In this document: positions 22,002 through 46,663 of the stretch, one piece after another
Layout of the letters: each line of letters starts with the position of its first letter
Position numbering within the stretch: position 1 is the first letter of the stretch
Virus record (IMG/VR): IMGVR_UViG_3300017792_000001
Coordinates: 40,697-104,696 of that record
Direction: 5' to 3' (one strand)
Origin: a virus
Taxonomy: Duplodnaviria > Heunggongvirae > Uroviricota > Caudoviricetes
Length of the DNA: 64,000 nt
The notes under the pieces: model-generated
What the model was told of the DNA's origin: nothing
The model's input: only the letters and a program-made list of their open reading frames with translations
The model's database searches: none
Program-made: the position numbers and the translations under genes

Positions 22002-22003
22002 GC

Positions 22004-22138: not shown

Positions 22139-22181
22139 CTGTAAACGTCAATTGAACCCATATAAGCTAAGGAAGACCCGC

Positions 22182-25698: not shown

Positions 25699-25715
25699 CT
25701 AGCCGAGGATCCGTT

Positions 25716-25913
25716 ATGAACCATCCAATGTCTGCGCAGCAGTGGCACCAATGGCGTGAGCGTTATTACGCCAAACGTCCGAAGTTACCAGCAATGGGTA
25801 AAACGTTTGTACGGGAACACGCAAAAGATTCAGAACGGCACGCTGAGTTGATCAACGCGCCGAGTGACAAAGCTGCCGAACAATACATCGAAGAACGTTT
25901 CGTTCAATTCTAG
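25716..25913 (+). CDS. hypothetical small protein
   Basis: 65 aa, RBS gaggatccgtt ATG. Confidence 0.45.
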   Translation: MNHPMSAQQWHQWRERYYAKRPKLPAMGKTFVREHAKDSERHAELINAPSDKAAEQYIEERFVQF

Positions 25914-25925
25914 GAAAGTAAGAAC

Positions 25926-26660: not shown

Positions 26661-26685
26661 ACAGCATTTAGAATAGGAGAGGAAC

Positions 26686-27654: not shown

Positions 27655-27911
27655 TGGCTCGCAAGGACGTCACGGATCTGATGGTACTCGAAGCCATCAA
27701 AGAGCGGGCTATCACTGGTGAATCACTGCTGCGCATACTGATGGTGCGTACCAATGAACCCGAGAAAGTTTGCTGGCGTGCAATGGAGCGAACTCTACGC
27801 CGCAACTACATCGACTACGGCACAAGTATGCGAACCTCTTGGATCACACCAGAAGGTCACGCGTACCTTGAGCTTTTGAACAAGGGACAAGAAGATGCTG
27901 TATCTGGTTGA
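27654..27911 (+). CDS. hypothetical small protein
   Basis: 85 aa, TAATG overlap. Confidence 0.5.
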   Translation: MARKDVTDLMVLEAIKERAITGESLLRILMVRTNEPEKVCWRAMERTLRRNYIDYGTSMRTSWITPEGHAYLELLNKGQEDAVSG

Positions 27912-28302
27912 ACGTGACCGTGAGGGCGTAGAAACCCTCACCCAGATCAAGTCCGGTATGAAGCTCGACAAGGCGCAGCCGGAAGTTTACAAGGCAATGC
28001 ACAAGGTAATGATGGCAGGTGCAAAGACCATCGCTACTCGCTTGCTGCAAACAGGCGACCTGCTCAAGCAGAACTACATCGACCTGTGCGAAACCACCAA
28101 CCCAATGGTCGATGCGATTCTCGCGGACAAGTTGCGTGGCTCAATGTACGGCTGCAAGTTTCGCTACGTGCGCAGCCGCAACAATGAGGAAGACGTGGCA
28201 CTAGGTCGGCAAGTGTTGCAGTTCGGTATTAACAGCGGCAGACGTGATGGCTATTACGTCGAGTTTGCCTACATCTTCACTCCACGGGAGACAGCGCAAT
28301 GA
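27895..28302 (+). CDS. hypothetical protein
   Basis: 135-aa ORF. Confidence 0.5.
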   Translation: MLYLVERDREGVETLTQIKSGMKLDKAQPEVYKAMHKVMMAGAKTIATRLLQTGDLLKQNYIDLCETTNPMVDAILADKLRGSMYGCKFRYVRSRNNEEDVALGRQVLQFGINSGRRDGYYVEFAYIFTPRETAQ

Positions 28303-29033
28303 TCGGAACAACTCAATACGCTTCATGGAACCTCGATGCCATGAATATGTTTCCGAGTATCAAGGACTTGGAACCGCAGCGCGTCCAGATCGACGCACAC
28401 CTCAATGAGCGTTTCCCGTCGAACGCTGAGCACAGCATCCTGGAAGCAATCTTCGGTGCAGACGAACACGTCACGCTGGCGCTGAGCGTTGCAATGGCTG
28501 CTGGTATGCTTGCGATCCAAACGCAGGCAAAGTTTGAACCGAAGGACGATGACCAGAAGGAGGCCCAGGACGAACTGGTGCGTCAACTCTGGAACAGCCA
28601 GAAGGACTTCATCAAGAAGGAGCTGTACAACCATCTGCAACTCGGTATCGCGCAGTGGTGGGACAAATCCGAAGACCACTTCATGCGGGTTGACTGCGAC
28701 GACACCATGAACCCGCCATCTGTCCTGGAAGAAGGCAAGCTGGTCGCTGTAGTGACACTGGCAAGTGGACTCAAGAAGTCCCAGCTCACCATGTTCCACT
28801 TCGTGTTCGACCGTTACTCGACTGTCGAGGCGTTGTTGAAGAACGGCATCAACGCATACCTGAAAGACTTGGCAGCGGCTCGTCCTGCAATGTACGAAGT
28901 GATCTGCGACCGCACCAACAACAGCGACGAAGACATCGCCAACAACGTCCTGAACGTTGATATTTCGTCCAGCGATCCTGACGTGATCAGAGCGTGGCAA
29001 GAAGCAGGCATTGAACTCAAGCCCAAGGAGTAA
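28299..29033 (+). CDS. hypothetical acidic protein
   Basis: 244 aa, ATGA overlap. Confidence 0.5.
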   Translation: MIGTTQYASWNLDAMNMFPSIKDLEPQRVQIDAHLNERFPSNAEHSILEAIFGADEHVTLALSVAMAAGMLAIQTQAKFEPKDDDQKEAQDELVRQLWNSQKDFIKKELYNHLQLGIAQWWDKSEDHFMRVDCDDTMNPPSVLEEGKLVAVVTLASGLKKSQLTMFHFVFDRYSTVEALLKNGINAYLKDLAAARPAMYEVICDRTNNSDEDIANNVLNVDISSSDPDVIRAWQEAGIELKPKE

Positions 29034-29035
29034 CA

Positions 29036-29413
29036 ATGCTCTTTGGTGCAGTGAAGCGAATCGGTACCCTGCACCTCGTCAACAAGCACAAGCGCACCAA
29101 GTCACCGGTTAATCCCTTACGCCCTGCAACTGTCGATGTGTTTATTGGTCGCCCGTCTTGTCTCGGCAATCAGTACCACATCGGCACGCACGGTGATCGT
29201 GACGAGGTGTGCGACTGCTATGACGTCTGGTTGCGCAAGAAGGTAAAACGCAAAGACCCTGTGATCATGGCAGAGTTGCAGCGGATCAGCGATCTATTGG
29301 ATACCGGGCATGACGTGTGTTTGGTCTGCTTCTGTCACCCACAGCGCTGTCACGGTCTGAGCGTTATCAAACAAATCAAACGCCTACGTGGCGGAAAGAA
29401 GGTGAGACCATGA
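29036..29413 (+). CDS. DUF4326-like protein
   Basis: VDVFIGRPSCLGNQYHIG ... VCLVCFCHPQRCHGLSV resembles the GRP-x-GNP / CxC-x-P-x-x-CH pattern of DUF4326 family members as I recall them. Confidence 0.5.
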   Translation: MLFGAVKRIGTLHLVNKHKRTKSPVNPLRPATVDVFIGRPSCLGNQYHIGTHGDRDEVCDCYDVWLRKKVKRKDPVIMAELQRISDLLDTGHDVCLVCFCHPQRCHGLSVIKQIKRLRGGKKVRP

Positions 29414-30189
29414 GCGAATCTCCGTTGAAGCAGCACCACGAACGCAGCACGCCGCAACAACGTCTGATCGAAGCTGCGTTTGGGATATACAAGCGCAAGT
29501 GCGAGGAACTCCGCTACCCAATGAGTCTCGACGCGCCGATACGTCAAGGTGACGACCTGGTATTTCAAGGCGGTCGTCTCGGTGCTCACGTTGGCTTCTC
29601 TGTTTGGGAACTGGCTGAGTTCATGCAGTACATGGCGAAGACGCATCGTCTGTTTGAACAAGGTAAGACCCGCTTCCTTATTCGCTTGAACGACAACGAC
29701 TGGGAGGCGTTTCAGGACGACACTATGGACGGGTGCATTAAGCGCGTCGATGACCACTACACGGCAGAACGTGCGGCATACGAAGCCAGTCCCAAGTACG
29801 TCGAAGACATGGCGCAAGCCGCGGCCGACGAAGCTGCAAACTTCACACGCTGCAACCACGTAGCCCACAAGCTCGACATCGGGTTTGATCGTTACGACGT
29901 AGCCAGTTGGGTCCAAACGTTTGTTGAAGTCAGCCAAGGTCGTGGTGCACTCATGGCAACTGACGCGCAAATGATCTTCAACCGCTTCCAGATCATGGGT
30001 TACGAAGTGAGCGAAGGTGTTGGCACTGATCCGAAGACCTTCGAGGAGCGTGTGCGCTACATCGTCGGCCAGGTCATGAGCTACTGCCAGAAGGGTTGGC
30101 CTCCACATCCAATGCTTGCTGACTTCGCAAAGACTGCAATCAAAGATCATCTGGAGCCTGCGAATGAGCAACCTGCCAGCGAATCGTGA
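29410..30189 (+). CDS. hypothetical protein
   Basis: ATG 29410 after aaggtga; ATGA overlap. Confidence 0.5.
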   Translation: MSESPLKQHHERSTPQQRLIEAAFGIYKRKCEELRYPMSLDAPIRQGDDLVFQGGRLGAHVGFSVWELAEFMQYMAKTHRLFEQGKTRFLIRLNDNDWEAFQDDTMDGCIKRVDDHYTAERAAYEASPKYVEDMAQAAADEAANFTRCNHVAHKLDIGFDRYDVASWVQTFVEVSQGRGALMATDAQMIFNRFQIMGYEVSEGVGTDPKTFEERVRYIVGQVMSYCQKGWPPHPMLADFAKTAIKDHLEPANEQPASES

Positions 30190-30889
30190 TCAACTACCTG
30201 CACGTCAAGGTCATGTTATTCCCTCAGTGGAGAATGTGCTCCAGGAAATGATGCTGGCAGGTCAGACTGACGGGTTGCTCGAAGAAATCCTGCTGCAACT
30301 CAAGACCTTCACCCAGTTGGTCTGGTGTGTGACTTACGGTAGCGACATCAGTGTCGGCGTAACGATGCACAGTGTCCCTATGGAATATTTTGGCAGAACG
30401 TGGCATCAACCAGCGCGTCCACCTGAGCTTGACATCCGCATGTCGATCTTCCAGTATGAAGACGGCAAGACCCTGAACGAGTTGCTGCTAAAGGCAATGT
30501 ATGCCGAACCGTACGGGGCGATCATGTCACTCGAAAGCGGTGTGGAAATGCAGAGTCACAACGGCACCGGCACAGTCAAGATCGACTTGACGATTCCTGG
30601 TGGCAACCCGTACGGTGAACGTTGGCACAATCTTGTTTTGATTATGTTTAACGGCACCCAGGAAATGAAGGACAAGGTGGATTACATCGCGAGCCTCAAG
30701 ATCGAACGCAAGACCGATCTGGAAGAAGCGCTGTATCGGGTTTGCTGCGCACTGTCTGCATTTTACGACTGGGCAATGCGTACTCGCCATCACCAATGGT
30801 ATCGCAATCCCTTCGGTGCTCAGGGTCCACAGGGCGCACAAGGTCCGCAAGGTGCAATCTCATACGAACCACGATTGGGGAAATTCTGA
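30164..30889 (+). CDS. hypothetical protein with short collagen-like GPQGAQGPQG motif
   Basis: ATG 30164 after ggag; ORF-track 30116 is TTG. Confidence 0.45.
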   Translation: MSNLPANRDQLPARQGHVIPSVENVLQEMMLAGQTDGLLEEILLQLKTFTQLVWCVTYGSDISVGVTMHSVPMEYFGRTWHQPARPPELDIRMSIFQYEDGKTLNELLLKAMYAEPYGAIMSLESGVEMQSHNGTGTVKIDLTIPGGNPYGERWHNLVLIMFNGTQEMKDKVDYIASLKIERKTDLEEALYRVCCALSAFYDWAMRTRHHQWYRNPFGAQGPQGAQGPQGAISYEPRLGKF

Positions 30890-31566
30890 TGAACCGTGAA
30901 CGAGGCCTCAACTTCGGCGCAAGCACGTACCACAAACCAAACGATCCGAGCGAGTATCAGTTCGCTTACCTGTTTGTCTGGACTGCCAGCTTTATCGAGA
31001 AGCTCGGTCGCATCGGGCTGCCGTTCGAACCGTACATGGTGAACAGCGGCGAGTGGTACGTGATCAGCGCCAACGAAATCAACGAGAAGCTGACTGACTT
31101 GGCTGACGTGATTTTAAATGTAAAGGATCGTGTAGTCGAGAAGTGCGGTGTTGAAGTCGGCGGCAAGAGCAAAGGCAACGTCGAATACTCCGACGTGTTC
31201 CTGTCTCTGGTGTGTAGCGGCATCGGGCATGTTCCACCAGACCTGCAATCTGCACGTCGCATGGCGCAGGAGCTTTACTTCGTCGAGCAAGACATGATCA
31301 AGCGACTGGGTGACGACTTCGGTATCGAACGATTCCCTACAACACCGATCAACATGGTCACCCTCTCTGGTGTATGGGACACTGCGAATCGGTTGCAGTC
31401 CCGTATCTTTGAACTGAAGGGTCTGCTCAAGCGCTGCGAAGATACGTCTGACGACAAGAAGGGCGCAGCGATCACCAAAGCCTTCATCGAAAATGTGGAC
31501 CTGAAGAATCCACCTAACCCGGATCGCAGAATGCAAATCAACCGCGAACCGAAGCAAATCAACTAA
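30889..31566 (+). CDS. hypothetical protein
   Basis: ATG 30889 with TGATG overlap. Confidence 0.5.
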   Translation: MNRERGLNFGASTYHKPNDPSEYQFAYLFVWTASFIEKLGRIGLPFEPYMVNSGEWYVISANEINEKLTDLADVILNVKDRVVEKCGVEVGGKSKGNVEYSDVFLSLVCSGIGHVPPDLQSARRMAQELYFVEQDMIKRLGDDFGIERFPTTPINMVTLSGVWDTANRLQSRIFELKGLLKRCEDTSDDKKGAAITKAFIENVDLKNPPNPDRRMQINREPKQIN

Positions 31567-31574
31567 GGAAGTAA

Positions 31575-32429
31575 ATGAACATGAAGAAACAACGTGGCAG
31601 TGCAGTTGCTGGTTTGATTGCGGCAGTCGCAGTCATTGCAGTAATCGGTTACGTGCTGTGCTGGGTATTTCTCAAGCACTCCATCGTAGCAGAGAACGGC
31701 GTCGAAGTCGTCATCGTGGACAAGCCGTACTTCTGGGGCCACGAAGGTGTGCGCAAAGAAACCCTGAAGCCTGGCTCTCGCTCTGTCGAATGGCGCACTA
31801 CTGACGGCATTGAAGTACCGATCACACCGTTGACCGTACAGATGCAGTTTGAAGACCTGCCGACTTCGGACAACGTGCTGCTCGACTTCTCCACTTCGTT
31901 GCAGGTTCAAGTAACCGATGCTCGCGAGCTGATCGTAACGAAAGGCGCGAACTGGTTTGCGAACAACCTGCAACAGCCGTGGTCGTCTGAGTTCCGTGAT
32001 CAGACCAAAGCGCACACCATGAAAGAAATCATGACAGATCCGAAGGTCGCTGCTCTCATGGAGAAGAATCTCTTGGAAGCACTGACCAAACGTGCTGCTA
32101 CTGACGGCATCGCGGTTCGCATCACTGACTTCAACATGGGCCGCGGTAAGCCTAACCCAGCAGTACAAGAAAAGCTGGACGCAACGGCGGCTGAGCAGCA
32201 GCGTTCGACTACTCTGGATGCCACGATCGTTGCAGAAGGCAAGCGTGCAACCTCAGAAGCAGCGCGTGCTCTGGCCGACAAAGCCTACGCTGATGCCATG
32301 AACTACAGCCCTGAACAGGTTGTGCAACTCGCGGCGATCAATGCGTATGCAGAAGCGTGCAAGAAAGAAGGCACCAACTGCGTCATCATGGCGCCGGGTG
32401 CTAATCCCGTAATCGGCGTAGGTAAGTAA
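31575..32429 (+). CDS. SPFH / band-7 (prohibitin-HflK/C-like) membrane protein
   Basis: N-terminal TM AVAGLIAAVAVIAVIGYVLCWVFL, then an SPFH-like core (ITPLTVQMQFEDLPTSDNVLLDFSTSLQVQVTD ... IAVRITDFNMGRGKPNPAVQEKLDATAAEQQR) and an Ala/Glu-rich coiled tail. Confidence 0.65.
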   Translation: MNMKKQRGSAVAGLIAAVAVIAVIGYVLCWVFLKHSIVAENGVEVVIVDKPYFWGHEGVRKETLKPGSRSVEWRTTDGIEVPITPLTVQMQFEDLPTSDNVLLDFSTSLQVQVTDARELIVTKGANWFANNLQQPWSSEFRDQTKAHTMKEIMTDPKVAALMEKNLLEALTKRAATDGIAVRITDFNMGRGKPNPAVQEKLDATAAEQQRSTTLDATIVAEGKRATSEAARALADKAYADAMNYSPEQVVQLAAINAYAEACKKEGTNCVIMAPGANPVIGVGK

Positions 32430-32431
32430 CC

Positions 32432-32755
32432 ATGAGTGATGACCTCTTCAAAGGCGAAGACCCGTACATCGTTGTGAACCGTATCGAAGCATTCAAAATG
32501 TTTGCTACGGCGTTCTTTCACGATCCAGAGTTCGGCTTGACCGAGGATATGATTCGACAAGCTGGGCACGCTCTCGCCAAGTGCGACAAAAGCATGGGGA
32601 ATTGGATCAACGGCGACGCAGAAGATCCGATCACTGGCTGGCATCCGTGTACGGTACTCGCCGCAGAAATGTTTGAGCTACCAGAAGAAAAGCTGAATGG
32701 GCCTCAGAAAGCCTATGCGAAGCTGATCTACGCTCGGTGCAAAGCTGCGAAGTAG
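32432..32755 (+). CDS. hypothetical protein
   Basis: 107-aa ORF 2 nt after the SPFH gene. Confidence 0.5.
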   Translation: MSDDLFKGEDPYIVVNRIEAFKMFATAFFHDPEFGLTEDMIRQAGHALAKCDKSMGNWINGDAEDPITGWHPCTVLAAEMFELPEEKLNGPQKAYAKLIYARCKAAK

Positions 32756-32778
32756 TCATCACTCTGCTCCAACATCAG

Positions 32779-32803
32779 GGACCTTCGGGTCCCTTTTGTC
32801 AGT
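32779..32803 (+). terminator. rho-independent terminator GGGACC-TTCG-GGTCCC + TTTTGT
   Basis: 6-bp GC stem, tetraloop, T-run immediately after the 32755 stop. Confidence 0.6.
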
Positions 32804-32815
32804 AGGAGAGCCAAC

Positions 32816-33130
32816 ATGAAACGAGAGCGCACGGTTGTAGGTAGTCTTGTAGAGACAGAGCACGGCAAGACGTTCAATCGCCCTGTGACTGTCTGTCCGG
32901 GTTATGGCATCATTTGCTATGGGCTTGGCGTAACGAACGGTAGCATCGCTATCTGCGCTGGGCAAATCAAAAAGATGTTCTGGAATCTCGAACGAGCAAG
33001 AAAAGAGAGTGGAGACCCGAAGCTGGAGTTTGTCTTCACTCTCGAAGATGAAGTGCTGGATATTCCCAGCATGTCCTTAGAGGCGCTGTTTCAGCGTCTA
33101 TTGGCAGTGTACGAAAAGTACGGAGAGTAA
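32816..33130 (+). CDS. hypothetical protein
   Basis: RBS taggagagccaac ATG. Confidence 0.5.
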   Translation: MKRERTVVGSLVETEHGKTFNRPVTVCPGYGIICYGLGVTNGSIAICAGQIKKMFWNLERARKESGDPKLEFVFTLEDEVLDIPSMSLEALFQRLLAVYEKYGE

Positions 33131-33133
33131 AAA

Positions 33134-33694
33134 GTGGACAACGACATTATCCAACTAAGCGCCGGTACTACCGTTGATCTGTCGGTATGCAAGCTGACCC
33201 CACACCAAATTGAATGGTTGCAGAAGCTCGCTTCGCATCCTTCGTTCAATGGTCTGCTTGAACCCGACTTCGACCAAACTCGCGCTTCTGGTTCTTTCGT
33301 TTGCACCTGGTTGTCTGGTACACGTCGTCATCAAGCATTGGTCGGTCGCTATCGCACCATGCCTTGGCCTCAACGTGGGCAGCTTGCGCAACTGCAAGCC
33401 AAGACCATGTCGCACAACTGGAAGCCGCAACTGTTCAAAGCAGTCGGCACGTACAGCTTCAAAGACCGCCCGAACGACTTCCCTTCGCTGCGTGAAGACT
33501 TCGAAACACGCTGGCAGGAGTTGATGACTGCGTGGGACAATCGCACCGATATGACTGTCGAGTTTGCCTTCCCACACAAGTGCTTGGCACTGGCGAAGGA
33601 TATGATCATCCTCGGCAACCTGGCCTTCGCACAAGAACTCACCAATCGTTACGATGCCCTCTCCGAAGAAATGAGGGCCAGTCATGAGTCGTAA
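33134..33694 (+). CDS. hypothetical protein (GTG start)
   Basis: GTG 33134 after ggaga; no in-frame ATG nearby. Confidence 0.45.
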   Translation: MDNDIIQLSAGTTVDLSVCKLTPHQIEWLQKLASHPSFNGLLEPDFDQTRASGSFVCTWLSGTRRHQALVGRYRTMPWPQRGQLAQLQAKTMSHNWKPQLFKAVGTYSFKDRPNDFPSLREDFETRWQELMTAWDNRTDMTVEFAFPHKCLALAKDMIILGNLAFAQELTNRYDALSEEMRASHES

Positions 33695-34283
33695 CCAGTA
33701 TGAAGATGCCCGAGGGTCGCTCAACTTTCTGGTACGTCAGGTGCAGTTACTTGAGTACCAGTCCGAGTTGATGCTGTGCAAGTTCGGAGAGTTTCGACCA
33801 GAACCTCCGATCGGGCGTTCGATGTACCGTGCAGATGCTTTGCGGGCATTGTACGAAACGTACCAGCGTATCGAAGCACGCAGCACCATCATGCAGTCCA
33901 AGATTGCCAGTGAGTTTGCTTCGATGCTGCTCCAACCTGTGTACAAGAGCGCACTCGACCTCCTGAAACATGTGGTGCTGGAAGGTGATTGCTACTGGGC
34001 AGGGCGAGAGCATGAGACTGACCCGAAAGACTGGGTGCTGATGTTTGCTCGCGGCACTCCAGACTGCCCAGAAGATTTGCGTTTCTGCCAGATGTTCCCT
34101 GCGTTGCAATGGACTGGCAAGATCAACGAACGCGGTGACATCATCGGTCAGCCATTGAAGCTAGTCTGGAAAGCAGACGCTGGCTCTATCGAGGGCTGGA
34201 GTCTCGAACCGAATCAGCGTCTGCGCATCGTCACGCAGAAACGTAAAGACTTGATGGAGCGCCGCAGTGCCGAACATTCCTGA
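33684..34283 (+). CDS. hypothetical protein
   Basis: 199-aa ORF. Confidence 0.5.
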   Translation: MSRNQYEDARGSLNFLVRQVQLLEYQSELMLCKFGEFRPEPPIGRSMYRADALRALYETYQRIEARSTIMQSKIASEFASMLLQPVYKSALDLLKHVVLEGDCYWAGREHETDPKDWVLMFARGTPDCPEDLRFCQMFPALQWTGKINERGDIIGQPLKLVWKADAGSIEGWSLEPNQRLRIVTQKRKDLMERRSAEHS

Positions 34284-34542
34284 TAATCTTCCTGCGTATG
34301 TGCAAGCTGTGATTGATGCTGCACCGAAAGACTACTTCAACCACGTGCGCGCAGTCAACACAACGGAGCATCGCTACATTTTGAATGGGGATCACCACGA
34401 AGTGCGATTGAATACACGCTACGGTATCATCGTGCGTCGAAACCCTACCCAGTTGATGTTGCGCTACGCTGTGCATCACTCGCATGCCAATGTAATTGCC
34501 CAACTGCGATCCGACCTGCAATTGAACAAGGTACTGTCATGA
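34267..34542 (+). CDS. hypothetical small protein
   Basis: 91 aa, ATGA overlap with kptA. Confidence 0.45.
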   Translation: MPNIPDNLPAYVQAVIDAAPKDYFNHVRAVNTTEHRYILNGDHHEVRLNTRYGIIVRRNPTQLMLRYAVHHSHANVIAQLRSDLQLNKVLS

Positions 34543-35087
34543 ACGAGAAGCAAATCACCAAGGCCAGCAAGTTCCTGAGCTTCGTGCTCCGCCATGAACC
34601 ACAGGCTATTGGGCTCACGCTCGACAGCGACGGCTGGGCAGACATCGACGAACTGATCGCGTGTGCCACGAAGCACGACCACTTCATGAACCGTGACCTG
34701 CTGCAGGTAGTCGTCACCACGAACGAGAAGAAACGGTTCACTGTCGAAGGCAACAAGATCCGCGCAGCCCAAGGTCACAGCGCAAAGACTGTGGCGATGA
34801 AGCATGAGCCAATGATTCCACCGAAGGTTCTGTATCACGGCACGGCAACGCGCTTCATGGAGTCGATCAGCAAGACTGGTCTGACCAAGCAGCAACGTCA
34901 CCACGTGCATCTGTGCGAAGACAAGGCTACGGGCATCGCAGTCGGCAAGCGCTACGGTAAAGTGGTGTTGTTGAAAGTTGATGCAGACGCGATGTTCCAA
35001 ACCGGGCATGTGTTTTATCAGGCAGACAACGGTGTCTGGTTGACCGACAGCGTACCGCCGCAATATCTGGAGATTGACAATGGCTAA
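34539..35087 (+). CDS. kptA: RNA 2'-phosphotransferase KptA/Tpt1
   Basis: Near-collinear with E. coli KptA: SKFLSFVLRHEPQAIGLTLDSDGWADIDELI ... KKRF ... IRAAQGHS ... LYHGTATRF ... RHHVHL ... NGVWLT. Confidence 0.88.
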   Translation: MNEKQITKASKFLSFVLRHEPQAIGLTLDSDGWADIDELIACATKHDHFMNRDLLQVVVTTNEKKRFTVEGNKIRAAQGHSAKTVAMKHEPMIPPKVLYHGTATRFMESISKTGLTKQQRHHVHLCEDKATGIAVGKRYGKVVLLKVDADAMFQTGHVFYQADNGVWLTDSVPPQYLEIDNG

Positions 35088-35682
35088 GCCCACATCCGAA
35101 TACGGTTTCGCGTACATCTTCCACATGCAGCGTGCAGCGTTCAACGATCTGGTGGGCCACTTCACTGGCATCGAAATGACGGTGACTGAGGAGCGCGAGA
35201 ACATCCAGATTGTCCACTTCTCCGACTACAAGACGAACATCGTCCAGTATGCAACCTACGTGTTTGAGCTGTGGACTGGACAAGTGCATAAGTCGCGCTT
35301 GACCGATTCGCAGGACATCGAGATTGTCTTGGCTATGGATGAGGCGCTGAGAGACATTGATCAGGCAAGTGCTTTCGGTGCGCTGCGCTTCCAAGTCATG
35401 AACCATATTCACTGGAAGCGTGAACAGTGCGAACGTCTGCTCCAGGAATGTTTCAACCACGGGTTTCAGTTGCCGCCAGTACCAAACTCCGCGTGCGCTA
35501 TCTGGAAAGGCGTCGAGACACCAAACCTCACTGGGCTGTTGCTTGACGAAGTGGTCGAATACTTCAATATGGCGCACTGCAAGAAACAGGCGCTGATCGA
35601 CCGTAACCGTAATGAAGCGGTTCGCGATCTTGGACGTATGCTGCGACCTACAAGATCACCTGTGGCTCATACGCACAGCTAA
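35080..35682 (+). CDS. hypothetical protein
   Basis: ATG 35080 after ggag; ORF-track 35074 is TTG. Confidence 0.5.
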   Translation: MAKPTSEYGFAYIFHMQRAAFNDLVGHFTGIEMTVTEERENIQIVHFSDYKTNIVQYATYVFELWTGQVHKSRLTDSQDIEIVLAMDEALRDIDQASAFGALRFQVMNHIHWKREQCERLLQECFNHGFQLPPVPNSACAIWKGVETPNLTGLLLDEVVEYFNMAHCKKQALIDRNRNEAVRDLGRMLRPTRSPVAHTHS

Positions 35683-35753
35683 TCTGTAAAGAATTTGTGA
35701 GGCAATTCAGTCTCACAACTATCCGGGCCCCATGAGGCTCAAAAGGAAATGCA

Positions 35754-36521
35754 ATGACTGACGTACAAGCTGGTACTAACCTCCGTGTGTTCCACTACCT
35801 GAGCGACCTCGCGGTTAAAGGCGAGACGACCACTTACCAAGATATGGCGATTGCTCTCAATCTGCCAGCTCAAGGTAACAACATGAGCAAGGTGTTGAGT
35901 CCCATTCTCTACAACGTGTTTATGTTTTGCGTGTTGCAGAAACTTCCACACCTCACCTCGATCGTGGTGCGTAAGTCTGGCAATGAGCAAGGTCTGCCGG
36001 GTATGGGATTCTGGAAAGTGATTGAGCGTACCCAAGGCGGTGCGATCTACCACGAAATCGCGGCTGGTAGCAAGGCACGCAAGACTGCGCTGAGCAACCG
36101 CTTCAAGCAAGAAGTGTTTACGAACTGGGGTGACCCACTGTTCCTTCAATTGACCCTGCCTACTCTCGACTATCCAATGCTTGACATGGCTGAGCAAGAG
36201 GAAGAAGGGTTCCTGGAGAACCTCTGGTTCGAACGTCAAGGTGCCAAGCTGGAGCGTCTGAAACCAACGAGTCGTGCAGACCACGAAACTGCCACGTTGA
36301 GTTATGAGCAGACGAACGCGATCCTGGAGGAAATGCGCCAGAAGATTGCCAAGGAGTTTGGTGTGACGTTGCAGGATGATCCTAATGGTGCATGGGGTCA
36401 AGCTGGGCAACGCTACCTGACGCTGCGCTTTGGTGATTCGGAAGTGAGCATGACCATCAACACGGTCGCCAGTCACAAAGCAGATGCGGAACACAATGCC
36501 TTCTTGAACGAAGACAAGTAA
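35754..36521 (+). CDS. hypothetical protein
   Basis: 255 aa, RBS aaaaggaaatgca ATG; followed by a terminator. Confidence 0.55.
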   Translation: MTDVQAGTNLRVFHYLSDLAVKGETTTYQDMAIALNLPAQGNNMSKVLSPILYNVFMFCVLQKLPHLTSIVVRKSGNEQGLPGMGFWKVIERTQGGAIYHEIAAGSKARKTALSNRFKQEVFTNWGDPLFLQLTLPTLDYPMLDMAEQEEEGFLENLWFERQGAKLERLKPTSRADHETATLSYEQTNAILEEMRQKIAKEFGVTLQDDPNGAWGQAGQRYLTLRFGDSEVSMTINTVASHKADAEHNAFLNEDK

Positions 36522-36523
36522 CG

Positions 36524-36561
36524 AAAAAGCCCTGCCTAGAGAAATCTAAGCGGGGCTTTTT
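36524..36561 (+). terminator. rho-independent terminator (GCCCTGC ... GCGGGGC + TTTTT)
   Basis: Hairpin with A-tract before and T-tract after, 3 nt beyond the 36521 stop. Confidence 0.55.
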
Positions 36562-36729
36562 ATGGCGTCCAATAAGCTGTTCATAATTTCTTGATGCGGG
36601 TGAGAATTACTTGCCCTTGCAGCAGGAGGTGATCCCCTATCTCCGAGATACCACGACTCAGTTATCAAAGAGTGGTAGGCGAGCTGTACGCCGAACCCAT
36701 CGCGGGTTTCTACCTACAAGGACCTTCCC

Positions 36730-37008
36730 ATGACGCCCCAAGACCGCATCGTTTTGTCTGGGCTGTTGGAGCGAGCGAAGCTGCTTGATCACCATCAGAC
36801 CCACGACCGTTTCATTTACTTCATCCGAAAGTGCATTGAAGAAGCCAAGAAGCGCGGCAGTTCGTCGTTCGCTGACCGGTTCACCGATATGTACGCTGCA
36901 CACCAGTTGTCGTTCCGTGCGTTCGATCAGCGGCGCCAGATGGTTGGTAAGCTTGCAGCTACTGGGCATGCCGTCGTCTCTTGGTTCTTCCCGAGGGCTG
37001 TGGCATGA
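36730..37008 (+). CDS. hypothetical protein
   Basis: 92-aa ORF after a 170-bp gap. Confidence 0.45.
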   Translation: MTPQDRIVLSGLLERAKLLDHHQTHDRFIYFIRKCIEEAKKRGSSSFADRFTDMYAAHQLSFRAFDQRRQMVGKLAATGHAVVSWFFPRAVA

Positions 37009-37373
37009 AGATCAGCTTTCCATTGCGGTCGACTGTAGCGGTAGCTGGCACTGATGTTGTGTTCCCCGAGTACGCGCATAAGATCCTGATGTCGCTCGGC
37101 GTGACTACTCTGGAAGGCTGGAAAGTTTCAGTATCACCGGGTAGTTTGAAGTTCAGCCACAGTTCCGATACATGGGGCGGTGGTGACTTCGTACTGCGTT
37201 TGATTGCGCAGACGCTGCGTCGTAACTTCGAAAAACAACCGAAGACCCTTGATGATTACGACAAAACCAAGCGTTGGGATTTGGTTATCGACGACCGCAT
37301 GGTGATTATCGACCTGCGTATCTCGACTGGCTGCAAGGAACGCGCGTACTTTACCACTATTACGATCAGTTGA
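37005..37373 (+). CDS. hypothetical protein
   Basis: ATG 37005, ATGA overlap. Confidence 0.5.
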   Translation: MKISFPLRSTVAVAGTDVVFPEYAHKILMSLGVTTLEGWKVSVSPGSLKFSHSSDTWGGGDFVLRLIAQTLRRNFEKQPKTLDDYDKTKRWDLVIDDRMVIIDLRISTGCKERAYFTTITIS

Positions 37374-37381
37374 GAACGATC

Positions 37382-37762
37382 ATGCCGAGACTAGCAAAGA
37401 AGAAAGAAGCTGCACATTGGTTCCACAGTAAATCACCTGCTGCGCAGAAAGCCTACATCGCTGCGCATCCGAATTCCATTTACGCAAAGAAAGGCGCCAC
37501 GAAGGCCAAGATCAGTAAGACCGCAGAGACTCGCGGTGCTGGCTTGCGCGCTGCCCGTGAAGCTCGTCGTGCATCGACTGAGACTGTCGCACCAAAGAAC
37601 CGCGTGAATCGTGTACGCAAAGCTGCACTACCTGCTCATGAAAACTGGGATGGTTGGGATCCAGAACCGACAGCAACGCCCAAGGGAGCACGTAAAGGCT
37701 TGATCAAGAAATCGTCGGGGTCTGGGGCTGCACCAAAAGTCCGCAAGGGTATCCGCAGATAA
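37382..37762 (+). CDS. basic protein with WF ... QKAYIAAHPNSIYAKK motif, paralogue A
   Basis: ATG 37382; K/R-rich; shares a ~25-aa motif with the convergent gene 37808-38212. Confidence 0.5.
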   Translation: MPRLAKKKEAAHWFHSKSPAAQKAYIAAHPNSIYAKKGATKAKISKTAETRGAGLRAAREARRASTETVAPKNRVNRVRKAALPAHENWDGWDPEPTATPKGARKGLIKKSSGSGAAPKVRKGIRR

Positions 37763-37807: not shown

Positions 37808-38212
37808 CTATCGAAGGCGCTTGATGCGATCCTCAAAGACTTTGATCTTCATTTTGAGTTCCTGGTTCTCACGGCTGTACTCCCACGATTGCTTCTCGTC
37901 GGGCATACGCTTGCGTGCCTTCTTCCCTTCGCCCAAGAGCTTGGAGATACGTTCCTTGTTCTGATCAATCTTGCGCTGCAACCGAGCAATAGCCATTTTG
38001 TAGGCTTTGATCCGTGCAGTGTTGTCTTCTTTCACCGTGGTCTTGGTGACTGTCTTGCGCTTCTCCGCGTAGATCGAGTGCGGATGTTCCTTGACGTATT
38101 GCGCTTGCTTCGGCTTGGTCAACTTGCTGAACCAGTTGCCGATGTTGAGTGCTTCTGCCTTGTTACGTGCGCGTCTCTTTCCGGGCTTGACCCGCTTCAT
38201 TACAGCAGCCAT
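37808..38212 (-). CDS. basic coiled-coil protein with NWF ... QAQYVKEHPHSIYAEK motif, paralogue B
   Basis: RBS GGAG 6 nt upstream; last gene of the minus-strand late block. Confidence 0.5.
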   Translation of the reverse strand: MAAVMKRVKPGKRRARNKAEALNIGNWFSKLTKPKQAQYVKEHPHSIYAEKRKTVTKTTVKEDNTARIKAYKMAIARLQRKIDQNKERISKLLGEGKKARKRMPDEKQSWEYSRENQELKMKIKVFEDRIKRLR

Positions 38213-38221
38213 ACAATCTCC

Positions 38222-38635
38222 TCAGACCTCTGTTGATGTGCCCCAAGCCTGGATCATTACCTTGGTGTTTGGTGCGATTCGGTGCGATACGACTGTACCG
38301 CCGATGACGATGTTGACACTTGCACCACGAAGCGTATAACCAGTACCACCTTTAGCAGTCCATGGGCTGATCAGGTTTGCTGTCACCCGATCATGAACTG
38401 CGGATGTTGCTGGCGCTACAGCAGTCGCTATGACGTTAACGGGCGGGGCCGAAAACTTCGCTGCACTCCAATCAACTGAAAAGACACCAAGGGCGTCACT
38501 GGTTGCTTCACCGATCCAGCAACGCATATTGGTGGCTGTTACCCTTCCTTGCGCGTTGTAAAGCGAAATACTGGAGGTCAGGCGTTCCTTCTCCTTGACC
38601 TCGTTTCGTGCCATCACTTTCCCATTGACGTCCAT
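38222..38635 (-). CDS. hypothetical protein
   Basis: 137 aa, RBS GAGGA 7 nt upstream. Confidence 0.5.
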   Translation of the reverse strand: MDVNGKVMARNEVKEKERLTSSISLYNAQGRVTATNMRCWIGEATSDALGVFSVDWSAAKFSAPPVNVIATAVAPATSAVHDRVTANLISPWTAKGGTGYTLRGASVNIVIGGTVVSHRIAPNTKVMIQAWGTSTEV

Positions 38636-38653
38636 AGCGTCATCCTCTCTGGT

Positions 38654-39364
38654 TTATAAATCTCCCGATAAGAAACGACCGATGATACGGCTGACGTGAC
38701 CCACTACCTGACCCAGGCTTGAGTGCCTGAAGTGCCCAGCCTCTTGGCCGCCGCGCACGTAGTCATAGTGGATTGTGAGTTTCTGGATCTGCGGATGCTG
38801 GCACCAGTCTTCAATACGCATAGCGAGAGTGTCGTCGCCCTTCTTCATTTCCAGAGTCACGGTGTCTTCGTCGTCAACCTCCACCTCACCGAAATGCTCA
38901 GCGATCAGAGGTGTATCACGTAGCATCTGGGCAACCTGCTGCATTGCAGAGGTGGCGGACAGAGCCAACATCTTCGACTGCACCAACTCATCCAGAAAAG
39001 GCTTGAGGATCTTCGGTACCTTCTTGCGTGCGTCTTTCAACGGGAACCACTTGCGCTTGCGCAGACCCTTCTCAGGCCAGTCAGGCGTGTCGTTCTTGTA
39101 AAGCATACCGTACATCACGACGCTCTGGTCGCGCCCTTGCTTACGGTACTTGTACGTGCCAAGGGTGGAGAGAATCTGACCAGCTACGCCAGCTTCCTCG
39201 TAAACTTCTTTTGCTGCGCTCTCACGACTCGACAGGTTCTTTTCGACACCGCCTTTCGGGTAGACCCAGTCCTTGCCGTCGCTCGACTTGACCAGCAGAA
39301 TCTCATACTCGAAATTGCGGTTGTAGCGAAAGACCACGCAGCCACTTTGTTTGCGTTCACTCAT
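38654..39364 (-). CDS. NUDIX hydrolase
   Basis: GCVVFR ... ILLVKSSDGKDWVYPKGGVEKNLSSRESAAKEVYEEAGV: Nudix-box-like KEVYEEAGV (R to K variant) after the GG-x-E loop; ATGA coupling. Confidence 0.6.
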   Translation of the reverse strand: MSERKQSGCVVFRYNRNFEYEILLVKSSDGKDWVYPKGGVEKNLSSRESAAKEVYEEAGVAGQILSTLGTYKYRKQGRDQSVVMYGMLYKNDTPDWPEKGLRKRKWFPLKDARKKVPKILKPFLDELVQSKMLALSATSAMQQVAQMLRDTPLIAEHFGEVEVDDEDTVTLEMKKGDDTLAMRIEDWCQHPQIQKLTIHYDYVRGGQEAGHFRHSSLGQVVGHVSRIIGRFLSGDL

Positions 39365-39957
39365 GGCTTATTTCCTATGTGCATCGTAATGCGGTTCTTG
39401 CGACCTGACAGCCCGTTGAGTATCGCACACGAGCAGAAGAACCCGTAACGACGGCATGCTTCGGCTGCAACAGGTGCTTCGGTGATTTCATTCAACGGCT
39501 CTGGCGCTTCGTTCGGGTCGATCCAGCGGCTGTAACGATCAACCCAGACCATGTGATCTGGAATCACTTCACCGTTCTGGAATATGGAATTCGCACGCAT
39601 TTCGGCTTGACGTGCTCGCCATGCAGCCTGCTCTGCTTCGATGCGGACGTTGCGTGCTTCCTCTACTGCAATCTCCTCGGCCGTGGTGACAAAGGTGCTG
39701 TCAACGTCCTTGATGGTGATCGCATCATAGAAGTACAGACGGTTCTCGCCGTCGTTGACTTGAATTGCCAGATCATACGTGACCTTGGAATTCGAGAACT
39801 GCACCTTTTCAATACGTGCCTTGAAGGCTTTGTACATATTGTCTTTGGTGAGCAGCCAGGTGTTCGGATGAAACAACACCTCTGAACCAATCTCGAAGCG
39901 AGAGGAGAATGCACCCGAGTCAGCGACCTTCAACTTCATACTCAGTGAGATAATCAT
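39361..39957 (-). CDS. hypothetical protein
   Basis: 198 aa, ATGA overlaps on both sides. Confidence 0.5.
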   Translation of the reverse strand: MIISLSMKLKVADSGAFSSRFEIGSEVLFHPNTWLLTKDNMYKAFKARIEKVQFSNSKVTYDLAIQVNDGENRLYFYDAITIKDVDSTFVTTAEEIAVEEARNVRIEAEQAAWRARQAEMRANSIFQNGEVIPDHMVWVDRYSRWIDPNEAPEPLNEITEAPVAAEACRRYGFFCSCAILNGLSGRKNRITMHIGNKP

Positions 39958-40418
39958 TCGTGGATCACTCGCTTCTGGTTGTTCTTGGTGAGCGACACCG
40001 AAATCCAGTGCGTCTTGTCCTGGAGGGTGTCGAATTCAGGCAGTGTCTGGATGAACTCAAACAGGCCTTTGTTGTTGCGCGACCGGAGTGTCACTGCGCA
40101 GCATGACTGGTGTTGCTTCTGTTCCAGATACGTGCGCCACGATTCAGGGCGAATATGCAGGCGGTTCGCAATGCACCACTGGACGTAAGCGTTGCGGCTG
40201 TAGTCCTTCTCAAGCGCTTCACTGCGATACCAGGAAGTGATGTGGTACTGGAAGCCAGCTTCGATCAATGGCTCCAGAATACCGAGGGCTAGCGCACGGG
40301 CATTATCAACCAGCGCGTTGCTATCCACTTCGTTGTTGATGTTGAGGCGTACTGCCTGTTCGTTGTACTGGACATCGTACAGGGTGAAGTTGTCACTGAT
40401 CCGGATTCGATTGTCCAT
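39954..40418 (-). CDS. peptidase M15-like protein, putative endolysin (catalytic motif not evident)
   Basis: ISDNFTLYDV ... ALALGILEPLIEAGFQYHITSWYRS matches the N-terminal half of Peptidase_M15_3; the SxHxxGxAxD motif is not recognisable; directly upstream of the spanin and holin. Confidence 0.35.
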   Translation of the reverse strand: MDNRIRISDNFTLYDVQYNEQAVRLNINNEVDSNALVDNARALALGILEPLIEAGFQYHITSWYRSEALEKDYSRNAYVQWCIANRLHIRPESWRTYLEQKQHQSCCAVTLRSRNNKGLFEFIQTLPEFDTLQDKTHWISVSLTKNNQKRVIHE

Positions 40419-40882
40419 TAAAGCACCAATAAAATACCCATGAACACGATCATGGTCTTGTGAATGAGGAGCTCGGTTGAGAACTCTTGGTACTGCTGCC
40501 GACGTGCGTTCTCTGTCTCAGCATACTTCTGCTGGAAGAAGTTGGCACGGTCTTCCTCAAGGGTGAGAGTTTGCAGCATGACATTGCGCTGATCAACCAA
40601 GCCATTGTGTGCTGTGATCAACAACTGGAGCGCTTCGGTGTTTTGCTTGGCTGCAGCCTCGAAGGCCGATAGCTTCTGCACACCAACGCTGTTCAGCACA
40701 GCATACGAAGTCCCGTCGATTTGCTTGATCTGGAGCTTGTCCGTCTGCGGCAGTTCTGCGGCGACAGCGTTCAGCTTCTCAGTCGGGACTAGCTTGGAAT
40801 AACGGTCGCTTGGCTCGACCGGTACTTGTTGCGTGCCGCACCCTGTAAGGAATACGGCTAAGACCAGCGCAATGTACTTCAT
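40418..40882 (-). CDS. unimolecular spanin (u-spanin)
   Basis: N-terminal lipoprotein signal MKYIALVLAVFLTGC (lipobox LTGC) plus C-terminal TM LLIHKTMIVFMGILLVL with a periplasmic coiled region; TAATG and ATGA coupling to neighbours. Confidence 0.6.
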   Translation of the reverse strand: MKYIALVLAVFLTGCGTQQVPVEPSDRYSKLVPTEKLNAVAAELPQTDKLQIKQIDGTSYAVLNSVGVQKLSAFEAAAKQNTEALQLLITAHNGLVDQRNVMLQTLTLEEDRANFFQQKYAETENARRQQYQEFSTELLIHKTMIVFMGILLVL

Positions 40883-41268
40883 GCGGTAGTACCACCTGTT
40901 TGGGTAAGTTCCTTCATTTTCTGCTCTTGCACGGCGATGGCAGCTTCCTGCTTGGCGATGATGTCACCAGCAGTTCCACCGACGGGTGCTTTATTGAGCA
41001 GGTTATCACAGGCGAATCCTATCGCCATGTATGCCAGCTTGCCTGACTCTGGGTCAGTGATGATCGTGAACAGGAATGCCGAGAACGTACCCAGCAGTGC
41101 AGTCTGCGTGCGACCCGGATATTGCTTCCAGTATGCACCCAGGCTGATTTCCAATTCACGGCTACGCTTTGCCCAGTTGATTGCGACACCGATACACACG
41201 CACATGAAATACGTGAGTGCTATATGCGGCTCCACTCCCAGCAACTCCTTCACTGCGTCTAAAAACAT
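40879..41268 (-). CDS. holin candidate (3 TM segments)
   Basis: 129 aa with hydrophobic helices (IALTYFMCVCIGVAINW; ALLGTFSAFLFTII; LAYMAIGFACDNLL) and a charged C-terminus; adjacent to the spanin. Confidence 0.5.
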   Translation of the reverse strand: MFLDAVKELLGVEPHIALTYFMCVCIGVAINWAKRSRELEISLGAYWKQYPGRTQTALLGTFSAFLFTIITDPESGKLAYMAIGFACDNLLNKAPVGGTAGDIIAKQEAAIAVQEQKMKELTQTGGTTA

Positions 41269-41280
41269 GGTGTTCGCTCC

Positions 41281-41586
41281 TTACTGCTTGCCCTTGTTGT
41301 ACGAGTTGACTGCATCTTCCAAGGACATATCTGGTTGAATAACCACGGGCTTCGGCTTCAATGCCGTTTCGATGGTTTTGTGTTGGTCGGCAAGTACGAC
41401 TTGCTCTTTTTCGAGTTGCTTGGCGTTGTTGTCGGCCTGAGACATATCAGGACTTTTCGCAACGGGTTCATTCGCTGGGTTAGCTGGTGACTTACGCATG
41501 ACGACAGCTACGGCGAGACCAATAGCAGCCGGAATTCCCAAGACTAACCAAGCTTTGATCTTCGATAACCATTCCATACGTTTCAC
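41281..41586 (-). CDS. type-II single-pass membrane protein (antiholin / holin-partner candidate)
   Basis: N-terminal TM WLVLGIPAAIGLAVAVV, Pro/Lys-rich periplasmic tail; sits in the lysis cassette. Confidence 0.4.
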   Translation of the reverse strand: MKRMEWLSKIKAWLVLGIPAAIGLAVAVVMRKSPANPANEPVAKSPDMSQADNNAKQLEKEQVVLADQHKTIETALKPKPVVIQPDMSLEDAVNSYNKGKQ

Positions 41587-41592
41587 CTCTTA

Positions 41593-42606: not shown

Positions 42607-42720
42607 TACGTCTGCACCTCACGATAGTGATCGCCTTCTGCCTTGCGCCGTGCAGTCTTCAACAACTTGCGGGCAAGACGGCCTTGGATAGCACGCATAT
42701 CGGATTCAGGTCCTACGCGT

Positions 42721-43401: not shown

Positions 43402-43472
43402 TGCATGCCCTCATTTGGATAGGCATAAATTACAGACCTGAAGACGGGCCCTATACAAGCGGCCCGAATGCG

Positions 43473-46655: not shown

Positions 46656-46663
46656 ATAGAGCC

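Follow-up and report, generated by a model that had tools for sequence, protein, structure and literature searches.

The window, meaning the whole 64,000-nucleotide stretch of DNA that was analysed, represents positions 141004..205003 of the 277,619-bp metagenomic jumbo-phage contig ena:ERZ27252475:k141_3623464 and is collinear with Pseudomonas phage PaBG. It encodes a member of the KptA/Tpt1 family, a bacterial enzyme that consumes NAD+ and strips 2'-phosphates off RNA. The original prediction had assigned this function to the span 34267-35682; KptA does lie within it, although the span comprises three co-directional overlapping ORFs and not one gene. These and the other features discussed here are listed in Table 1.

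Table 1. Genes of the window considered in the analysis; positions refer to the window.
Feature	Position	Strand	Remarks
RlaP (RNA-ligase-associated Pol-beta) nucleotidyltransferase	6785..7666	+	PF10127 E=3.3e-16; PHROG 14344 E=1.2e-22
DUF4326 protein, 125 aa	29036..29413	+	PF14216 E=1.4e-15; conserved backbone
199-aa ORF, no assigned function	33684..34283	+	lineage-specific like KptA, without PaBG homologue
91-aa ORF, no assigned function	34267..34542	+	stop overlaps KptA start (ATGA)
KptA/Tpt1 NAD+-dependent RNA 2'-phosphotransferase (predicted), 182 aa	34539..35087	+	PF01885, NF002014, PDB 7kw8, catalytic tetrad
200-aa ORF, no assigned function	35080..35682	+	ATG 8 nt inside KptA 3' end
Nudix hydrolase, 236 aa	38654..39364	-	PF00293 E=2e-13; PHROG 10313 E=1.9e-51

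The claim that the phage encodes a KptA is borne out by profiles, solved structures, catalytic residues and a structural model, all of which agree. The search against PF01885 that was proposed with the original prediction gave a match far beyond chance (E=1.7e-47; 162.2 bits, cut-off 26) that spans positions 3-176 of the 177 in the profile. PHROG 5470 is matched with E=9e-67, and the score against the NCBIfam equivalog NF002014 (250.6 bits) is above its cut-off of 239. Runella slithyformis Tpt1 (7kw8) is the top match in the PDB, with E=1e-46 and 47% identity. All five sequence motifs on which the prediction had drawn are found in the product (VLRH at residue 16, AAQGHS at 76, HGT at 100, HVHL at 122 and NGVWLT at 164). 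Loss of the catalytic Arg and His residues on alignment had been named as an outcome that would overturn the assignment. The Arg-His-Arg-Arg tetrad, the residues of which are essential in Tpt1 (PMC6097658), is instead complete: R18, H19, R66 and R120 align with Runella R16, H17, R64 and R119 (numbering checked on Runella Tpt1), the E. coli KptA counterparts are R21, H22, R69 and R125, and the tetrad is invariant across alignments of 16 and 36 sequences.

An AF2 model of the protein (mean pLDDT 87) displays a two-lobe fold, in which a winged-helix RNA lobe at the N terminus is followed by an ADP-ribosyltransferase-like NAD+ lobe at the C terminus. Foldseek superposed the model on Clostridium thermocellum Tpt1 (6E3A) with a TM score of 0.81 and an rmsd of 2.6 A over 178 columns, and every one of its top 21 matches was a Tpt1/KptA protein. 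At the level of sequence and predicted structure, the gene is confirmed as a full-length KptA/Tpt1 family member with the two-lobe architecture and all four catalytic residues. Length, lobes and tetrad are those of bacterial enzymes such as E. coli KptA, Runella Tpt1 and the chromosomal KptAs of Pseudomonas, Achromobacter and Methylocaldum. Unlike these, the window KptA resides in a jumbo phage, in a co-directional array of small genes where its start and stop overlap phage-specific ORFs.

The window protein is 55-62% identical to chromosomal KptAs from Pseudomonas, Achromobacter, Methylocaldum and Stenotrophomonas, versus at most 44% to the KptAs of 98 GenBank phage records. In a neighbour-joining tree the KptAs of this phage group come together in a single clade that lies within the bacterial sequences. 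The nearest relatives beyond the group are chromosomal proteobacterial KptAs and not those of earlier-sequenced jumbo phages. KptAs of other large phages (Erwinia phage Ea35-70 gp082, Klebsiella phage FBKp24 gp259, Clostridioides difficile phage phiCD211, Bacillus phage G gp280) belong to the same family, PHROG 5470, and likewise stand alone among hypothetical genes, without an adjacent ligase. Since the window KptA, nested among proteobacterial KptAs, is only 40-45% identical to these proteins, it represents a separate acquisition. PaBG has been placed in subgroup 2.2 and KptA reported in a ‘few group 1 and 3’ phages (PMC7824862), from which the PaBG-like lineage of the window differs. The donor would have been a proteobacterial host lineage resembling Pseudomonas, from which the gene passed a single time into a sublineage of PaBG-like jumbo phages. 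Its GC3 (71.6%, against 62.7 +/- 7.4 for its gene arm) does not make it a significant compositional outlier within that arm, and a search of its flanks for repeats and signatures of mobile elements returned only short matches at chance level.

A megablast of 33000..37000 against GenBank phages gave no match, and a peptide-pattern scan of IMG/VR for KptA relatives gave none; the relatives were recovered via a protein collection. Related contigs include logan:ERR15948647_4812 (170 kb), logan:SRR8244356_826 (126 kb) and jgi:3300061541 Ga0540615_0000293. KptA occupies the same slot in five related metagenomic phages (L004, L005, L014, L015/16) and is absent from PaBG and from the close relative L013, where the 91-aa and 200-aa ORFs have homologues that directly adjoin, with KptA missing between them. 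The surrounding arm is hypervariable, most of its genes having no homologue even in PaBG. In this variable arm of small genes KptA makes up an accessory cassette of one gene, dispensable in the close relatives PaBG and L013. PaBG gp149 (121 aa) carries the label ‘putative RNA 2'-phosphotransferase’, but it has no Pfam hit and a tblastn search of PaBG with the window KptA came back empty; the label is probably a misannotation.

Dispensability and the hypervariable surroundings could be taken to mean that KptA is a neutral, host-derived passenger with no selected role in the phage. This is very improbable in light of its retention by five or more related but diverged genomes, at 58-78% amino-acid identity and with all catalytic residues invariant, and of its independent recurrence in other jumbo-phage groups. 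The dN/dS values are 0.08-0.27 (0.076 for the sole unsaturated pair), well below 1, in keeping with purifying selection. The gene is also mosaic by lobe: relative to one relative, the N-terminal RNA lobe is 45% and the C-terminal NAD lobe 84% identical, and the pattern is reversed against other relatives.

The adjoining ORFs offer few functional clues. Pfam, PHROG, NCBIfam and PADLOC scans of those flanking KptA (33134..36521) yielded nothing usable, and the 91-aa ORF, whose homologues occur in L004, L005, L014 and L013 and are missing from L015/L016, had no Pfam, PHROG or PADLOC match. The ATG of the 200-aa ORF is preceded by a GGAG Shine-Dalgarno sequence. Its family has only 7-8 clusters in collections of 5.8 and 1.84 billion proteins, every one of them from this PaBG-like phage group, and a homologue occurs in the KptA-less L013; a profile search of the 1.84 billion representatives recovered 8 members, none tied to an annotated family. 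Its AF2 model, built from only 7 sequences, is poor (pLDDT 52). HFT and HKS motifs had made it a candidate 2H phosphoesterase, which was rejected because an alignment of the family shows conservation of neither. No tRNA genes or Rfam families were found in the 64-kb window.

The original prediction further suggested that KptA, the DUF4326 protein and the NUDIX hydrolase form a coordinated NAD/ADP-ribose module. Both companion genes are real, as the PF14216 and PF00293 matches attest, and all three lie inside 10.3 kb. A published prediction has DUF4326 proteins processing the ribose-linked terminal phosphates on derivatives of ADP-ribose, and Nudix enzymes cleaving ADP-ribose (PMC9503650). The three genes are nonetheless neither adjacent nor on one strand. 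The DUF4326 gene ends 5,125 nt before KptA starts, with nine ORFs between, and the Nudix gene, 3.6 kb downstream of KptA, runs in the reverse orientation at the far end of a minus-strand late (structural/tail fibre/lysis) transcription unit, a spacing and orientation that do not amount to adjacency or co-transcription. Presence or absence of KptA, which acts as an independent single-gene indel, does not co-vary with the other two: both are retained, at 52-78% identity, by the KptA-less PaBG (DUF4326 52%, in an unannotated stretch, and Nudix 67%, to gp207) and L013 (62% and 78%). The closest solved relatives of the Nudix protein are diphosphoinositol-polyphosphate (DIPP), Ap4A and Ap6A hydrolases, none of them an ADP-ribose or NAD pyrophosphatase, and its NCBIfam matches, to RppH and MutT1, are weak and all far below cut-offs; by sequence it resembles a DIPP/ApnA/RppH-type hydrolase and not an ADP-ribose pyrophosphatase. 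Pfam scans of the 97 window ORFs detected no macro, NADAR, 2H or SLOG domain. Because the genes are non-adjacent, DUF4326 and Nudix are retained without KptA, the Nudix resembles another type and none of those domains was found in the window, the module is unsupported, and we regard it as highly unlikely.

The absence of a visible RNA ligase or kinase, also noted in the original prediction, holds for the window, whereas RlaP was overlooked. The RlaP ORF bears a GSxxxG...DxD motif and is a homologue of PaBG gp003 (28% identity). It shares the gene arm of KptA, 27 kb further upstream, and apart from these two no RNA-repair gene is recognisable in the window. RlaP extends damaged RNA 3' ends by 1-2 nucleotides, and its gene in Pseudomonas is located inside the rtcB-rtcA operon (PMC12776372). 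No RNA ligase, polynucleotide kinase, Trl1/AtRNL-type ligase or 2H cyclic phosphodiesterase was detected by Pfam among the 97 ORFs, nor among the precomputed Pfam hits of the 9 kb upstream of the window, and no convincing ligase motif I (KxDG) turned up in the 390-aa ORF adjoining RlaP or in any other window ORF. In PaBG, the closest isolate and here a proxy genome, no RNA ligase or polynucleotide kinase is annotated, and the 2H protein called ‘LigT’ has its best score with Acb1, an anti-CBASS protein. Counting against an RNA-repair role are the lack of a 2'-phosphate-making enzyme and of a ligase or kinase in the window and the 9 kb upstream, the distance between KptA and RlaP, and the dispensability of KptA in close relatives.

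Removal of an internal 2'-phosphate is performed by every Tpt1 enzyme tested, and a subset also carries out a one-step ADP-ribosylation of 5'-phosphates (PMC6182162). KptA might accordingly act mainly as a nucleic-acid ADP-ribosyltransferase that caps 5'-phosphate ends of host or phage RNA or DNA to protect, block or mark them, with no removal of 2'-phosphates. The Foldseek matches include solved KptA complexes with 5'-p-ADPR-DNA, and a source of 2'-phosphates was not found in the window, both of which fit such an activity. In the original survey, however, the three archaeal enzymes stood apart by yielding the extra capped product, while the window KptA is closest to Runella Tpt1 and proteobacterial KptAs. 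Macro, ARH and PARG erasers were not found in the window either, and the physiological relevance of phosphate-end ADP-ribosylation has been described as unclear (PMC11833690). A primary role in capping seems unlikely.

The presence of RlaP in the same arm raises another option, in which KptA serves as a terminal phosphomonoesterase that frees the 3' ends of cleaved or chemically blocked tRNAs from a 2'- or 3'-phosphate, for use by RlaP, CCA-adding or ligating enzymes and with no ligase-made junction involved. Some Tpt1 enzymes do turn terminal 2'-PO4 and 3'-PO4 ends into OH (PMC6573784), RlaP requires a 3'-OH end, and a ligase was not detected in the window. Yet the closest relative to have been characterised, Runella Tpt1, does not act effectively on terminal phosphates (PMC6573784), the two genes are physically unlinked, and PaBG has RlaP and no KptA. 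We consider this option quite improbable.

Among known systems, the fungal and plant pairs of Trl1 (or AtRNL) and Tpt1 employ an enzyme of the same family and presumably the same chemistry, transfer of the 2'-PO4 to NAD+, but in the window and its 9-kb flank KptA was found unaccompanied by a ligase of the Trl1 type, a kinase or a cyclic phosphodiesterase. A possible functional analogue is the deployment of Pnkp and Rnl1 by phage T4 against anticodon nucleases, in which RNA ends are healed in the face of RNA-cleaving host defences. In T4, the 2',3'-cyclic phosphate is taken off by Pnkp through hydrolysis, with no need for NAD+ or Tpt1. The T4 repair of tRNA uses other enzymes and another chemistry, and Pnkp/Rnl homologues were not detected in the window. 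T4 also encodes an RlaP, NrdC.11 (PMC12776372).

The reading we favour, with only slightly better than even confidence, is that KptA was acquired once from a host lineage, is maintained by selection and acts as an RNA-repair accessory independent of the DUF4326 and Nudix genes. During infection it would clear 2'-phosphates from damaged or re-joined RNAs, the most plausible substrates being tRNAs cut by metal-independent host nucleases. The ligase partner may be host RtcB or a phage enzyme encoded outside the window, and KptA would function as an optional RNA-repair or counter-defence accessory beside the phage RlaP. Literature searches turned up no experiment on any phage KptA. A role of jumbo-phage KptA in the repair of RNA (tRNA) has already been proposed (PMC7824862, PMC9503650), and the original prediction, where it suggests that the phage repairs tRNA or ADP-ribosylates nucleic-acid ends, repeats that published hypothesis.

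PaBG-like phages may possibly lack any RNA ligase. KptA could then be a ligase-independent counter-defence enzyme, using NAD+ to unblock or ADP-ribosyl-cap the phosphorylated tRNA ends made by a particular host defence and passing them to phage RlaP and host RtcB. We view this as a long shot. Were it true, it would provide a physiological substrate for the long-obscure bacterial-type Tpt1, and the lobe mosaic of KptA might record an arms race over an RNA substrate or a host inhibitor.

With a KptA in phages and a suggested role in tRNA repair both already published, the annotation is correct but unsurprising. KptA is a stand-alone add-on and not part of an NAD/ADP-ribose module, and no new system is defined. 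The physiological role of Tpt1/KptA in organisms lacking a fungal-type tRNA ligase has been called obscure (PMC6573784). The KptA-plus and KptA-minus members of this otherwise syntenic group of phages would offer a convenient natural system in which to find the host defence or RNA lesion that selects for the gene.

The interval 34267..35682 contains three overlapping ORFs, all read in the same direction from the plus strand, and recognisable homology is confined to the middle one (see the table; the boundaries of the 200-aa ORF are those of the gene call of the source contig). Its product matches the Pfam family PF01885 (Tpt1/KptA) over nearly the full length (E=1.7e-47; 162 bits, gathering score 26; profile positions 3-176 of 177), PHROG 5470 'RNA 2'-phosphotransferase' (E=9e-67), and the NCBIfam equivalog NF002014 (250.6 bits; cut-off 239). 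The top solved-structure match is Runella slithyformis Tpt1 (7kw8; E=1e-46), in which R16, H17, R64, and R119 are essential by mutagenesis (PMC6097658). These correspond to R18, H19, R66 (within the KKRF motif), and R120 of the window protein, which are invariant in alignments of 16 and of 36 homologues. Its AlphaFold model (mean pLDDT 87) superposes on the C. thermocellum Tpt1 6E3A with a TM of 0.81 and an rmsd of 2.6 A, and the best 21 matches of a structural search are all Tpt1/KptA. Profile matches, catalytic residues, and model superposition together confirm the original prediction of a KptA, whose named motifs all occur in this protein (at residues 16, 76, 100, 122, and 164), and the product is almost certainly a KptA/Tpt1 enzyme. 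The annotation is correct but ordinary.

Positions of KptA, its neighbours, and its candidate partners in the window
Feature	Position	Strand	Remarks
Small-gene arm	1..37762	+	~68 tightly packed small genes
RlaP nucleotidyltransferase	6785..7666	+	PF10127, E=3.3e-16; PHROG 14344; GSRAWGYASDTSDLD motif
DUF4326 protein	29036..29413	+	real gene; conserved in PaBG and L013
91-aa ORF	34267..34542	+	first of three overlapping ORFs
KptA, 182-aa ORF	34539..35087	+	middle of three overlapping ORFs
200-aa ORF	35080..35682	+	last of three overlapping ORFs
Late unit	37808..64000	-	convergent; tail-fibre/adhesin, baseplate-like, and lysis genes
Nudix hydrolase	38654..39364	-	real gene; distal end of late unit, beside endolysin and lipoprotein homologues

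A 277,619-bp metagenome contig in ENA encodes an identical KptA protein, and the window represents positions 141004..205003 of this contig. A megablast of 33000..37000 gave no nucleotide-level match to GenBank phages. At the protein level, the window is collinear, in inverted orientation, with the closest isolate, the Pseudomonas jumbo phage PaBG (Baikalvirus, 258 kb), whose counterpart region comprises 201.7-258.1 kb plus 1-5.5 kb and whose structural proteins are 48-82% identical. KptA lies in the variable arm, where the majority of genes have no Pfam match and many have no PaBG homologue. Long antisense ORFs run all along this arm (e.g. 34476..35204 (-), 242 aa, opposite KptA); they arise from the high GC content of third codon positions (GC3 ~63%) and are not genes. 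Other arm genes include an Arc-like repressor (22152..22484, +; 58% identical to PaBG gp184), a Band_7/HflK-like protein (31575..32429, +; 59% identical to PaBG gp199, 'putative FtsH protease regulator'), and one more ORF matching helix-turn-helix (HTH_3) models.

The late unit contains three very large ORFs (43473..53669, -; 1060, 1176, and 987 aa), all homologous to PaBG proteins (27-48% identity), the first two to the 'adhesins' gp215/gp216. In a batch Pfam scan, two minus-strand ORFs match Laminin_G_3, which related contigs place on the 1060-aa ORF, and the collagen-repeat and Calx-beta models have one matching ORF each. The three large proteins are probably involved in host recognition. 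Another slot of the unit is filled by carbohydrate-active or beta-propeller-like genes that differ between relatives: weak BNR/sortilin-like repeats in the window (41593..42606, -), an Alginate_lyase2 in the related locus L004 (17055-17744), and a Cellulase in L005 (17170-18981), with no PaBG homologue. Its occupants have the appearance of depolymerase or host-range genes that have been exchanged.

Homologue searches recovered a few related jumbo phages from metagenomes, and in L004, L005, L014, and L015/L016 KptA occupies the identical slot. The locus L013 (JGI 3300061541) has no KptA, although homologues of the flanking genes stand in the same order. In the window, the 91-aa ORF ends and KptA begins within one ATGA; downstream, the KptA stop lies within the overlap with the 200-aa ORF, whose start is preceded by a GGAG Shine-Dalgarno. 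In L013, the 91-aa homologue stops at 7999 and the 200-aa homologue begins at 8001, their ACAATGGCTAA junction being that found after KptA in the window; the AACAATGGCTAA that closes the upstream ORF, overlapping the start of the 200-aa homologue, also closes the window KptA. Compared with window 34267..35682, L013:7745-8597 displays a precise absence of KptA. PaBG lacks KptA and its 199-, 91-, and 200-aa neighbours, and retains the anchors around the region (33134..33694, matching gp202; 35754..36521, matching gp205), while L015/L016 encode KptA without the 91-aa ORF. Given this pattern, KptA is a single-gene accessory cassette, and neither flanking ORF is its obligate partner. The family of the 200-aa ORF is tiny and its structure model poor.

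The nearest KptAs outside this phage group are encoded on the chromosomes of Pseudomonas, Achromobacter, Stenotrophomonas, and Methylocaldum (55-62% identity). The KptAs of 98 GenBank phage records, from Erwinia, Dickeya, Klebsiella, and Serratia jumbo phages, C. difficile phiCD211-like phages, and Bacillus phage G, belong to the same family but are at most 44% identical to the window protein. In a neighbour-joining tree (no bootstrap support), the KptAs of the group form one clade among proteobacterial sequences. Identities and tree placement point to a single transfer out of a host-like lineage, separate from the origins of other jumbo-phage KptAs. The GC3 of the gene is no significant outlier. 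That KptA is a neutral passenger is most improbable, as pairwise dN/dS values of 0.08-0.27 (most dS saturated; 0.076 for the sole unsaturated pair) indicate purifying selection rather than decay. Relatedness also seems to change within the gene, at the boundary between the lobes, as in an intragenic mosaic: the L005 protein (L005:10001-10576) shares 45% identity with the window KptA in the N-lobe (1-84) and 84% in the C-lobe (85-182), compared to 77-85% and 65-73%, respectively, for proteins P0002-P0005. Genes flanking KptA in L005 are 92-96% identical to those of the window, whereas KptA itself is only 63% identical overall.

The original prediction also placed KptA, tentatively, with DUF4326 and Nudix proteins in an NAD/ADP-ribose module. 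Both genes are present as claimed, and a link of DUF4326 to ADP-ribose phosphate processing exists as a published prediction only (PMC9503650). However, DUF4326 ends 5.1 kb upstream of KptA, with nine ORFs in between, and Nudix lies 3.6 kb downstream on the opposite strand. Both persist in the KptA-less PaBG and L013 (62% identity for DUF4326 and 78% for Nudix in the latter); the PaBG DUF4326 homologue (L011, 241379..241732; 52% identical) has no matching annotated CDS. The closest solved structures to the Nudix protein are diphosphoinositol-polyphosphate, Ap4A, and Ap6A hydrolases, and its weak NCBIfam matches are MutT1 and RppH, with no ADP-ribose or NAD pyrophosphatase among them. No macro, NADAR, 2H, or SLOG domain was detected in the 64-kb window. 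Spacing and strand, conservation without KptA, Nudix type, and the missing domains argue against a functional unit, and the three-gene module is very unlikely.

The window has no recognisable RNA ligase or kinase, as originally stated, and the 9 kb of contig upstream add none. An overlooked gene encodes RlaP, whose start and stop overlap 208-aa and 390-aa ORFs of unassigned function without PaBG homologues. RlaP extends damaged RNAs at the 3'-OH by one or two nucleotides, and its Pseudomonas gene lies between rtcB and rtcA (PMC12776372); in jumbo phages, its distribution reportedly mirrors RNA ligases (PMC7824862). With RlaP, the phage demonstrably invests in RNA repair, which does not prove a KptA-RlaP system. 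Joint healing of terminal-phosphate ends by both enzymes is highly doubtful, since the genes are 27 kb apart, RlaP occurs in the KptA-less PaBG, and the most closely related enzyme that has been characterised, Runella Tpt1, is ineffective on such phosphates (PMC6573784). In PaBG, taken as proxy for the remainder of the source genome, none of the annotated genes is an RNA ligase, RtcB, PNK, or macro gene; the phage does have a NADAR protein, several Nudix and phosphoesterase genes, five tRNAs, and an NAD-dependent DNA ligase. Two PaBG product names look misleading: gp258 (L010:32632-33165, +), 'RNA ligase LigT', is a 2H protein scoring best against anti-CBASS Acb1 (PF23474, E=1.9e-14), and gp149 (L009:8086-8451, -; 121 aa), 'putative RNA 2'-phosphotransferase', has no Pfam match and does not resemble the window KptA.

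Among GenBank phage genomes, ~100 have an annotated KptA, and a PHROG exists for the family. Earlier papers describe KptA in jumbo phages, a proposed NAD+-dependent tRNA-repair role, and 2H, macro, NADAR, Nudix, and DUF4326 proteins as proposed processors of ADP-ribose products (PMC7824862; PMC9503650), and the interpretation in the original prediction essentially restates these papers. No experimental study of a phage KptA appeared in the literature searched. Modest novelties are the KptA of the PaBG-like lineage, its apparently independent, host-like origin, its clean single-gene presence/absence polymorphism among syntenic relatives, and its putative lobe-wise mosaic.

Tpt1 enzymes work through an attack of the RNA 2'-phosphate on C1'' of NAD+, by which nicotinamide is expelled. 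Every Tpt1 tested transfers the 2'-phosphate to NAD+, while only subsets ADP-ribosylate 5'-phosphates or remove terminal 2'/3'-phosphates (PMC6182162; PMC6573784). An ADP-ribosyl capping enzyme acting on 5'-phosphates, as known from such a subset (PMC6182162), is unlikely here. Considering the universality of the canonical reaction, the restriction of additional activities to subsets, and the ineffectiveness of the Runella enzyme on terminal phosphates, removal of the 2'-phosphate from RNA is most likely the chemistry of the window KptA. The enzyme would take the 2'-phosphate off RNA with NAD+ as acceptor, ligation being left to host RtcB or to a phage ligase encoded outside the window. Tentatively, and with a chance approaching even, these phages may use KptA as an optional RNA-repair or counter-defence function.
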